This document shows, piece after piece, positions 60,081 to 62,764 of a stretch of DNA of 64,000 bases. Under the pieces are notes generated by a model that made no database searches, was not told the DNA's origin, and was given only the letters and a program-made list of their open reading frames with translations. How positions within the stretch are numbered: the stretch's first letter is position 1; each line of letters starts with the position of its first letter. Source of the DNA: a virus; IMG/VR virus record IMGVR_UViG_3300028829_004719; one strand, given 5' to 3'. The translations under genes and the position numbers were made by a program.

Positions 60081-60119
60081 ATATTTATCTCTTGAATGAA
60101 CTAAACTTGATCGTAATTA

Positions 60120-60341
60120 TTATACAGTCTTATTCTTGATTGTCAATCCTTTATTTTGAAGTTTTCTTATTTCATCCTCTAGTTTAAACGTTTCCTTCTC
60201 CAGCTTTTTCTTTTCTATATTATCGGATTTTCGCTTCAAAGACTTAATCTTGTTTATCTTTTTTTTTCTTAGTTGTTTTTTAGACTTTTTCTTTCCTCTT
60301 GCGAGATCTTTCTTTTGTTTAGATTTGTTTGGTTTTTGCAT
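60120..60341 (-). CDS. Small Lys-rich protein
   Basis: 73 aa, very basic, GGAA SD. Confidence 0.55.
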   Translation of the reverse strand: MQKPNKSKQKKDLARGKKKSKKQLRKKKINKIKSLKRKSDNIEKKKLEKETFKLEDEIRKLQNKGLTIKNKTV

Positions 60342-60381
60342 GGTTTTTCCTATTCAAACACGATCAATCCTACTAGAACAG

Positions 60382-60540
60382 CTTAGACACTGGTATAAAA
60401 ATGCAGGCTCACGAGTTCCTGCTTGCCCCTTGAACTGAACCACGGCTGGCCTATTTAAAGATCTAAGTCTACCGTAGTGGGGTAATTGCAAGAGGGGTTG
60501 TCTCGTTTGGATACTTCATGTCCCAGCAACGAACCCCTCC
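60382..60540 (-). ncRNA. Unassigned structured RNA or leader
   Basis: Three GC-rich hairpins plus a potential 7-bp pseudoknot in a 210-nt intergenic gap. Confidence 0.65.
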
Positions 60541-60551
60541 AAATAAATAAC

Positions 60552-60740
60552 TTAATTAAAATCAGACTCTTTAAGTTTTCTTATTAATTTTTTTTTATTT
60601 TTTACTAACTTTTTTTTACGTTTATTAATCTCTCGTAACTCCGATGAATCCAACTCTACATTGTAAGCTCTTTCCTGTAATAGATCAAGTCTGTCTTCAA
60701 TGTTATTAATTTGTTTTACGATAGACGGTCTGTTTTGCAT
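60552..60740 (-). CDS. Hypothetical protein
   Basis: 62 aa coiled-coil, basic ORF. Confidence 0.55.
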   Translation of the reverse strand: MQNRPSIVKQINNIEDRLDLLQERAYNVELDSSELREINKRKKKLVKNKKKLIRKLKESDFN

Positions 60741-60754
60741 AATAAAAAAAGAAA

Positions 60755-60785
60755 TAGAACAACCGACGTGACATCAGCTGTTCTA
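60755..60785 (-). terminator. Intrinsic terminator after ssb
   Basis: TAGAACAGCTGA/TCGGTTGTTCTA stem then TTTCTTTTTTT on the minus strand. Confidence 0.8.
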
Positions 60786-60797
60786 CTTTTAAGCTCC

Positions 60798-61139
60798 TTA
60801 AAAGGTTTCAGTCTCAGTACGTTTTGGTTTAACTACTTTTGAAAAGGTGACCGGCGTGATCGAATAGCTAATACGTTTAACTCCATTATTATCTTCCCAG
60901 TCACGTTGACGTAATCGCCCATCAACAATCACACGATCACCTTTAACCAAGTTTACATTTTTTGCATAGTCTGAATGACTACCCCAACCATCTACGTCAA
61001 GATAGACAGTTTCTTCTTTGTCCTTACCAACGTACTCATTAACAGCAATTCGAAAACTTACAAGATTAGAATCTGAAATACTTTTGTATTCTGGATCTTT
61101 TGTTAGATTTCCTTTAAAACGAACTTCATTATTTCTCAT
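60798..61139 (-). CDS. ssb: Single-stranded DNA-binding protein
   Basis: NEVRFKGNLTKDPE, FRIAVN, KGDRVIVDGRLRQRDWED..G.KR. Confidence 0.93.
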   Translation of the reverse strand: MRNNEVRFKGNLTKDPEYKSISDSNLVSFRIAVNEYVGKDKEETVYLDVDGWGSHSDYAKNVNLVKGDRVIVDGRLRQRDWEDNNGVKRISYSITPVTFSKVVKPKRTETETF

Positions 61140-62578: not shown

Positions 62579-62616
62579 ATTTTTTGGGTTTGAGTGCGAA
62601 ATTTCGCTCGAACCAA

Positions 62617-62690
62617 CGACTCTGACCGGATTCGAACCGGCAATCGCTGGATCGACAGTCCAGTGCATTGACCAATTATGCTACAGAGCC
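62617..62690 (-). tRNA. tRNA-Asp(GTC), CCA not encoded
   Basis: Full cloverleaf: GGCTCTG/CAGAGTC acceptor, CTGGA-CTGTCGA-TCCAG anticodon arm, GTTCGAATC T-loop, G73. Confidence 0.93.
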
Positions 62691-62693
62691 AAA

Positions 62694-62764
62694 AGCCACT
62701 ACGAGGAATCGAACCCCGAATAGCTGATTACAAATCAGCAGTTATACCGTTTAACTATAGTGGC
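62694..62764 (-). tRNA. tRNA-Thr(TGT), CCA not encoded
   Basis: GCCACTA/TAGTGGC acceptor, GCTGA-TTTGTAA-TCAGC anticodon arm, GTTCGATTC T-loop. Confidence 0.95.

Follow-up and report, generated by a model that had tools for sequence, protein, structure and literature searches.

The locus at 60545-60348 on the minus strand of the window, the 64,000-nucleotide stretch of viral DNA analysed here, is on balance thought to be the gene of a discrete structured small RNA (~145 nt) of an uncatalogued phage-specific family, which would be stable, act in trans and be tied to tRNA or translation biology. A 62-codon gene (60740-60552) flanks it on the 5' side and a Lys-rich 73-codon ORF (60341-60120) on the 3' side, the contig being AT-rich with every gene on the minus strand, and within the window ARAGORN calls tRNA-Asp and tRNA-Thr at 62616-62764, ~2 kb upstream of the RNA. 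An earlier note on this DNA had taken the whole span from 60348 to 60545 as one structured RNA; the part from 60540 to ~60397 (minus strand, ~145 nt) is retained here as the functional unit, whilst the last 50 nt (60396-60348) fall outside the conserved RNA (Table 1). This last stretch has no counterpart in those members of the family that are embedded in tRNA arrays, and it holds GUCUAAGCU (60390-60382), which is common only to one group of relatives (L005/L032), where tandem copies of another hairpin come after it.

Table 1. Parts of the window copy of the RNA, in 5' to 3' order of the transcript
Feature	Position	Strand	Basis or remark
P1, 5' hairpin (GGAGGGGUU...AACCCCUCU)	60540-60491	-	MFE folds
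Linker UGCAAUUA, ending in UA	60490-60483	-	alignment A1
Clamp helix, 5' strand CCCC (family: CCCY)	60482-60479	-	pairs with 60426-60429
Invariant A	60478	-	alignment
P2, variable hairpin	60477-60440	-	covarying stem base
Junction strand J, UUCAGUUCAA	60439-60430	-	unpaired, 9-10 nt bulge on 3' strand
Clamp helix, 3' strand GGGG	60429-60426	-	pairs with CCCC 5' strand
Spacer CAA	60425-60423	-	between clamp and P3
P3 hairpin, GCAGG/CCUGC stem, apex AACUCGUGA(G)	60422-60403	-	stem covaries
Tail AUUUUU (A + U5)	60402-60397	-	with P3, an intrinsic-terminator-like 3' end
Spacer upstream of Lys-rich ORF	60396-60348	-	outside conserved RNA

The three hairpins that the earlier note had drawn (60540-60491, 60482-60426 and 60422-60403, the last followed by UUUUU at 60401-60397) are all present and occur in the MFE fold. 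The energy of that fold is -54 kcal/mol against a mean of -53.5 in dinucleotide shuffles (z = -0.12), and as this is no better than shuffles the support for the structure therefore rests on covariation in homologs. The observation in the earlier note is confirmed in part. Pattern searches of viral and metagenome contigs gave ~27 distinct homologs, and the core that they have in common is ~75 nt long and reads UA-CCCY-A, a variable P2, UUCAGUKCAA (J), GGGG, a spacer of 2-3 nt and P3 with the apex WACUCGURA. All of these defining features of what is here called the clamp-J-P3 RNA family are found in the window copy.

The collection of sequences started from an exact search with hairpin 3, which led to an RNA between tRNA-Ala and tRNA-Ile in three viral contigs, and the core shared between this RNA and the window copy gave the patterns that were run over viral contigs, metagenome contigs and species-representative genomes. 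A first DNA pattern in which the P2 bases were included found nothing. Once chance matches had been removed 25 distinct sequences were left, and one contig (L029) is the same as the window sequence over the compared stretch. A final scan fixed only the 5' clamp, the GGGG and the P3 apex and left J free; it recovered the known members together with two new types on four contigs (L049/L052 and L050/L051). Exact-match patterns of this kind miss more divergent relatives. With the covariance model R1 the members score 63-87 bits, against at most 19 bits for chance pattern matches, and the window copy reaches 81.7 bits over all 89 model positions (60399-60488).

The family is restricted to phage contigs, from uncultured marine and freshwater phages, and the samples are marine, estuarine, marsh and sediment, with lake judged from some of the sample names. 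Amongst 185,579 species representatives no bacterial genome with the core was found by pattern scan and R1, as the scan returned only one contig (L044) and two chance matches (L045/L046, 16-18 bits with R1). That contig (CAUZEB010000192.1, 3293 bp) was deposited in a Dehalococcoidia MAG, yet it is identical to the metagenome contig L020 and carries the RNA with tRNA-Ala and tRNA-Lys genes, resembling the phage contigs; it is probably a phage fragment that was mis-binned. Among 50,697 phage records BLASTN matched neither the window copy nor either of two other members, and it therefore appears that no cultured phage carries the RNA.

The earlier note had proposed to look for covariation in homologs, and the pairs do covary. 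In the R1 alignment 99% of cells are paired and 6 of the 13 pairs change on both sides; such double-sided change affects 38 cells, where shuffles give 8.8, and the covariation score was reached by none of 500 shuffles. These shuffle-based statistics are inflated by relatedness, and about half of the sequences come from one phage group; the double-sided changes are still seen between at least six groups. The signal collapses when the partners are slid, and the same three helices were obtained from anchored counts, from RNAalifold and from single-sequence folds of 15 members. The clamp is paired in 25 of 25 sequences, with a fourth pair that is C-G or U-G. The second hairpin of the earlier note is indeed closed by this CCCC/GGGG helix, but its proposed UUG/CAA extension is not upheld, the position adjacent to the clamp being A.C in 20 of 23 sequences. 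P2 begins with four pairs that are standard in each of 23 sequences, as many as six pair types occurring at one position, and three of its four modelled pairs change on both sides. The P3 stem is 97.6% paired, with double-sided changes in three of its five pairs. Because U-G pairs are frequent in the conserved helices and R1 matches the minus strand only, the RNA is placed on that strand, in agreement with the earlier note.

The interior of P2 is 20-42 nt long, variable in sequence and without a 3-nt period, and the spacer between clamp and P3 is 2 or 3 nt; as these length changes are not multiples of three a coding reading is excluded. It can hardly be credited, then, that the locus is a mere 3' UTR with a terminator, a chance structure or a 45-codon ORF (60354-60491). 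The folding energy at shuffle level would suit such an explanation, an ORF can be drawn there, and P3 with its U5 is terminator-like, but ~27 sequences from different groups of phages conserve the core and show its covariation, also at sites with no upstream gene and no U-tract, and indels break any reading frame. Barring alignment artefacts, this explanation is refuted by the covariation, the indels and the scan in which J was left free.

J reads UUCAGU(U/G)CAA and is constant at nine of its ten positions, with one U/G position, although the invariance of bases in the patterns is partly so by construction since the members were collected by exact matches, a constraint that the J-free scan relieves for J only; in the four new contigs from that scan J differs at one position only (UUCAGUGCAA). 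The last two bases of the linker, U and A, are invariant or nearly so (columns T5 and A6 of alignment A1) and were in no search pattern until the J-free scan. The P3 apex ACUCGU is kept in every member found without requiring that motif, the R of the loop is only ever G or A, and one way to draw the apex is with a 4-nt bulge (WACU), one C-G pair and a tetraloop of the GNRA type (GUGA or GUAA). Going by the letters only, the second half of J, GUUCAA, resembles the GT-psi-CRA signature of tRNA T-loops, and the single variable position of J (U/G) would fall at T-loop position 2. The loop R (G/A) and the clamp Y (C/U) are associated (Fisher p = 0.02, uncorrected for relatedness), an association too weak for a tetraloop-receptor contact to be claimed.

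P1 is an optional 5' accessory hairpin. It has a different sequence in each group, is duplicated or branched in some and is missing in L049/L052, where a TTGCAA-17-TATAAT promoter is followed within ~8 nt by UACCCCAC and the RNA starts at the clamp. As P1 is absent there the functional core is therefore ~75 nt. A long-range pseudoknot had also been suggested in the earlier note, between CUUAGAU (60467-60461) and GUCUAAG (60388-60382). The 7-bp complementarity exists but is expected by chance, as 1411 of 2000 shuffles of the tail (71%) give a helix of at least 7 bp with the P2 interior. The pseudoknot is not supported: the loop of P2 shows no conservation, its partner is found past the putative terminator, and the array-embedded relatives have a tRNA gene in the partner's place.

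It is apparent from its different settings that the RNA serves as a free-standing gene module. It has a sigma-70-type promoter immediately 5' in the L006 group (~13 sequences), L049/L052 and L050, in which P3 is then followed by a U-tract, and such a tract follows P3 in 18 of the 25 distinct members. Six members have instead a non-U tail without a U-tract, and for five of these ARAGORN calls a tRNA gene that starts 0-2 nt past the model match and 4-6 nt after P3; the next tRNA begins 0-2 nt after the R1 match in L019, L022, L024 and L031. The RNA abuts a tRNA gene on one or both sides in L001, L005, L019, L022, L024, L031 and L051, and in L001 it exactly fills the 169-nt gap between tRNA-Ala and tRNA-Ile. 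In L020 it abuts tRNA-Ala upstream only, with the same non-U tail downstream and no tRNA called; the stretch right after the RNA there, L020:360-428 (-), resembles the tRNA-Ile of L001, is not called by ARAGORN and may be a divergent or degenerate tRNA.

The same RNA is found behind a promoter in L050 and directly behind tRNA-Glu in L051, and in the L005 group it stands at the end of a tRNA array, ahead of a strong U7 terminator. The locus also shifts among related phages: the RNA follows a 453-aa gene in L050 and the 62-aa gene in the window, and precedes dnaE in L052, with L050 syntenic with the window for the 453-aa gene, a 75-aa gene, SSB and a 67-aa homolog of the 62-aa gene. The RNA is associated with tRNA and tmRNA clusters, with tRNA genes within the locus for most members and tmRNA in several; within the examined loci of L049/L052 and L050 ARAGORN finds no tRNA gene.

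For the window copy a promoter scan upstream gave no convincing candidate. The nearest promoter-like site is TTGATC-17-TACAAT at 60688-60660 (-), inside the 62-codon ORF, and a strong intrinsic terminator (17-pair stem and U-run) lies at 60788-60752 (-), 3' of the SSB gene. P3 and AUUUUU form a 5-bp GC-rich stem with its tract but are absent from the list of the terminator scan, because under strict pairing the loop is longer than 8 nt. The 62-codon Lys-rich ORF (minus strand) is a real conserved gene, L050:8005-8208 encoding the 67-aa homolog in the same gene order after SSB and the 75-aa gene, and its product has no Pfam family.

These neighbourhoods bear on whether the RNA is a riboswitch or attenuator, that is a leader that binds a ligand or a factor and uses the P3/U-tract terminator to control the ORF downstream. 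The order of promoter, conserved core with invariant junction, hairpin with U-tract, SD and ORF in the window, the L006 group, L049 and L050 is what such a leader would have, but the genes downstream differ by group (the Lys-rich 73-aa ORF, a 64-aa protein, DnaE, tRNAs) and at least five members have a tRNA gene immediately 3' and no U-tract, the tail of L020 being alike. The apex of the supposed terminator hairpin is conserved, even where hairpin 3 is not followed by a U-tract, no alternative antiterminator pairing was seen and the distance from clamp to P3 is only 2-3 nt. A leader of this type is very unlikely, and the suggestion in the earlier note of an attenuator of the Lys-rich ORF is not supported, because what lies downstream in the relatives is either unrelated ORFs or tRNAs.

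Contigs assembled from RNA libraries are a weak hint at a discrete transcript. The 1.3-kb stretch of the window around the RNA is present in DNA runs of ~ten studies (marine, estuary, marsh, sediment) and in six RNA libraries. In the metatranscriptome run X20 a 151-nt contig is exactly 60390-60540, with 0 differences, starting at the first base of P1 and extending ~7 nt past the U-tract; besides this, the flanks appear in X20 only as two A-rich 21-nt pieces of a 561-nt contig, which is probably from another organism. A contig of run X14 (60401-60924) joins the RNA to the upstream genes, and runs X17 and X19 have contigs on flanking genes only, a lack of cover over the RNA that speaks neither for nor against it. 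The evidence for expression is weak because it consists of contigs, which cannot prove transcription, strand or ends.

A self-cleaving ribozyme, or some other processing signal that cuts the transcripts of phage tRNA arrays, is a further explanation. Small self-cleaving ribozymes are likewise compact RNAs with few invariant unpaired nucleotides, and by analogy the ~75 nt of the core, its few such bases and its placement in tRNA arrays may be thought to resemble them. No Rfam ribozyme family matches even at E<=10, however, HDV-like and twister ribozymes have nested pseudoknots that this fold lacks, the whole RNA is spanned uncut by the contig of X20, and those copies that are monocistronic, with promoter, RNA and terminator, have nothing to process, all of which makes a processing role most improbable.

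The put RNAs of phage HK022 are cis-acting processive antiterminators, in which a nascent two-hairpin RNA binds RNA polymerase and allows it to read through terminators. If the clamp-J-P3 RNA worked in this manner the terminators to be overridden would include its own P3/U-tract and the structured tRNA and tmRNA genes downstream. Like the put RNAs (~70 nt), the core is short (~70-75 nt) and combines two neighbouring hairpins with unpaired bases that do not vary, and in L049, L050 and the L006 group it comes directly after strong promoters that head clusters of RNA and other genes. As every gene has the same orientation something always lies downstream, and a universal target, e.g. RNA polymerase, would be in keeping with sequence conservation across phages whose hosts apparently differ. 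On the other hand the RNA has precise boundaries, a promoter or tRNA 3' end on one side and a terminator or the next tRNA on the other, which matters for a released and not for a nascent RNA. Copies are also found in the middle of arrays and, in the L005 group, at the array end before the strong U7 terminator, the RNA has a putative terminator of its own, and in X20 the contig is the RNA alone without flanks, which is a weak point. We know of no sequence similarity between the put RNAs and the clamp-J-P3 RNA, and antitermination of this sort is thought unlikely.

Comparison with known RNAs supports the view of the earlier note that this is a new non-coding RNA. Infernal searches of Rfam, which that note had advised, matched no known family, with riboswitches, ribozymes, 6S, SRP, RNase P, tmRNA, Y RNA, Drum and IMES among those covered: at the gathering score only two tRNAs pass in the whole window, at E<=10 in 60100-60800 there is only a chance AgrB match outside the element, and in eight other members nothing overlaps the RNA except a chance match to enod40 (E = 0.51; all Rfam 15). 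ARAGORN calls the flanking tRNAs and tmRNAs in other loci and never this RNA, neither as tRNA nor as tmRNA. Judged by eye, a permuted tRNA, SRP, 5S, a kink-turn or an HDV-like fold do not fit, and a full-text literature search with the core sequence returned nothing relevant.

Non-tRNA RNAs that travel with phage tRNA arrays, such as T4 species 1 and 2, GOLLD/ROOL and Y-like RNAs, are largely unexplained. The T4 RNAs 'species 1' and 'species 2' (rnaC and rnaD) are released by tRNA-type processing, and they resemble the clamp-J-P3 RNA as small stable RNAs (119-139 nt) annotated where a phage tRNA cluster ends, on the same strand as the tRNAs. They differ in that rnaC ends in a tRNA-like T-arm, whereas the clamp-J-P3 RNA has no acceptor-like or T-arm hairpin. 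Homology was rejected, as R1 with filters off over T4 69000-75000 gave a best score of 9.3 bits, in a match that lies elsewhere. GOLLD and ROOL are large (~500-800 nt) and occur mainly in bacteria and prophages. Along with Drum they are structured RNAs of unexplained function that are often in prophages and beside tRNA genes (PMC5737381), unlike the clamp-J-P3 RNA with its 75-nt core, its occurrence in uncultured aquatic phage contigs only and its lack of an Rfam match. Bacterial and phage Y RNAs (YrlA, RF02553; Ro60/Rsr) are small RNAs within or beside tRNA arrays that have tRNA-like modules (PMC4201824), but the clamp-J-P3 RNA has neither their 5'-3' closing stem nor their tRNA-like domain or CAGCAA handle, and RF02553 matches no tested member. 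The family is rated as a new one within a known kind, the small structured RNAs of phage tRNA clusters, although the motif may already be listed, without a name, among the 10,006 candidate phage RNAs of one catalogue (PMC10690425).

Stability, trans action through the invariant unpaired bases and the binding of a partner are inferred for the RNA. Free-standing copies would be transcribed from their own sigma-70-type promoter and end at P3 and the U-tract, whilst copies in tRNA arrays would be given the same ends by 3' processing of the upstream tRNA and the RNase P cut of the next one. The window copy would probably come from the transcript of the upstream SSB and 62-aa genes, or from a weak promoter, and end at its own terminator. 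Once released, the RNA would accumulate as a stable molecule acting in trans, with its invariant single-stranded bases and GNRA-type apex as the surface to which a highly conserved partner from tRNA or translation metabolism would bind, and its role may be the support or protection of the tRNA and tmRNA toolkit of the phage. As the J strand reads like a tRNA T-loop, the leading guess is that the RNA may be a mimic or binder of the tRNA elbow.

Current discussion sees phage tRNA arrays as a means of codon supply and of escape from tRNA-cleaving host enzymes. A more specific proposal, which is tentative and rather doubtful, is that the family is the first of a new class of tRNA-sized phage RNAs, in which a T-loop-like platform and a GNRA hairpin would bind or decoy a universally conserved component that recognises tRNA, and so protect or tune the supply of phage tRNA and tmRNA during infection. 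Candidate targets might then be such as RNase P, the ribosomal contact with the tRNA elbow, a tRNA-modifying enzyme or a tRNA-cleaving defence nuclease. When compared with the 16S, 23S and 5S rRNA of E. coli, the invariant strands gave only complementary or similar stretches of 8-9 nt, which is chance level, and sites complementary to the invariant strands are not enriched in the 64-kb window. The family is a compact example of such RNAs, with strong covariation, a conserved strand and apex and clean gene boundaries, and its small size and strict conservation make it suited to pull-downs, probing and structure determination. The locus deserves annotation as an RNA gene and not as intergenic DNA or a mis-called small ORF.

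The proteins encoded around the RNA are not constant. No protein common to all of its neighbourhoods was found, the small proteins that adjoin it have no Pfam family and are not common between groups, and a search of viral contigs with the neighbouring SSB protein found no relatives. The sole protein cluster that spans four groups is probably a homing endonuclease, going by the sequence of one member. In L001 the tRNA array ends with a tmRNA (tag ANENFALAA) and has within it, just beyond the tRNA-Ile that is 3' of the RNA, a gene (L001:8104-8469, minus strand) for a 122-aa RF-1-domain protein with a GGQ motif (Pfam E = 1.6e-24), which is ArfB-like, a ribosome-rescue factor.

Another hairpin is found directly 3' of the RNA in the L005 group, which is from freshwater, with at least three tandem copies (L005:1280-1540 (-), L025:9700-9960, L032, L036). 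It has the form UUCUGAUUG-N15-18-CAGUCAGC with a 7-bp stem, and UUUGUCUAAG precedes some of the copies. These tandem hairpins look like a second, unrelated array of small RNAs, and the GUCUAAGCU of the window may be a remnant of one of them. Upstream of the 415-453-aa gene, L050 (4135-4758), L013, L026, L039, L040 and L042 encode proteins that start MGRPC(I/K)CCE and continue into very long poly-Ser tracts.
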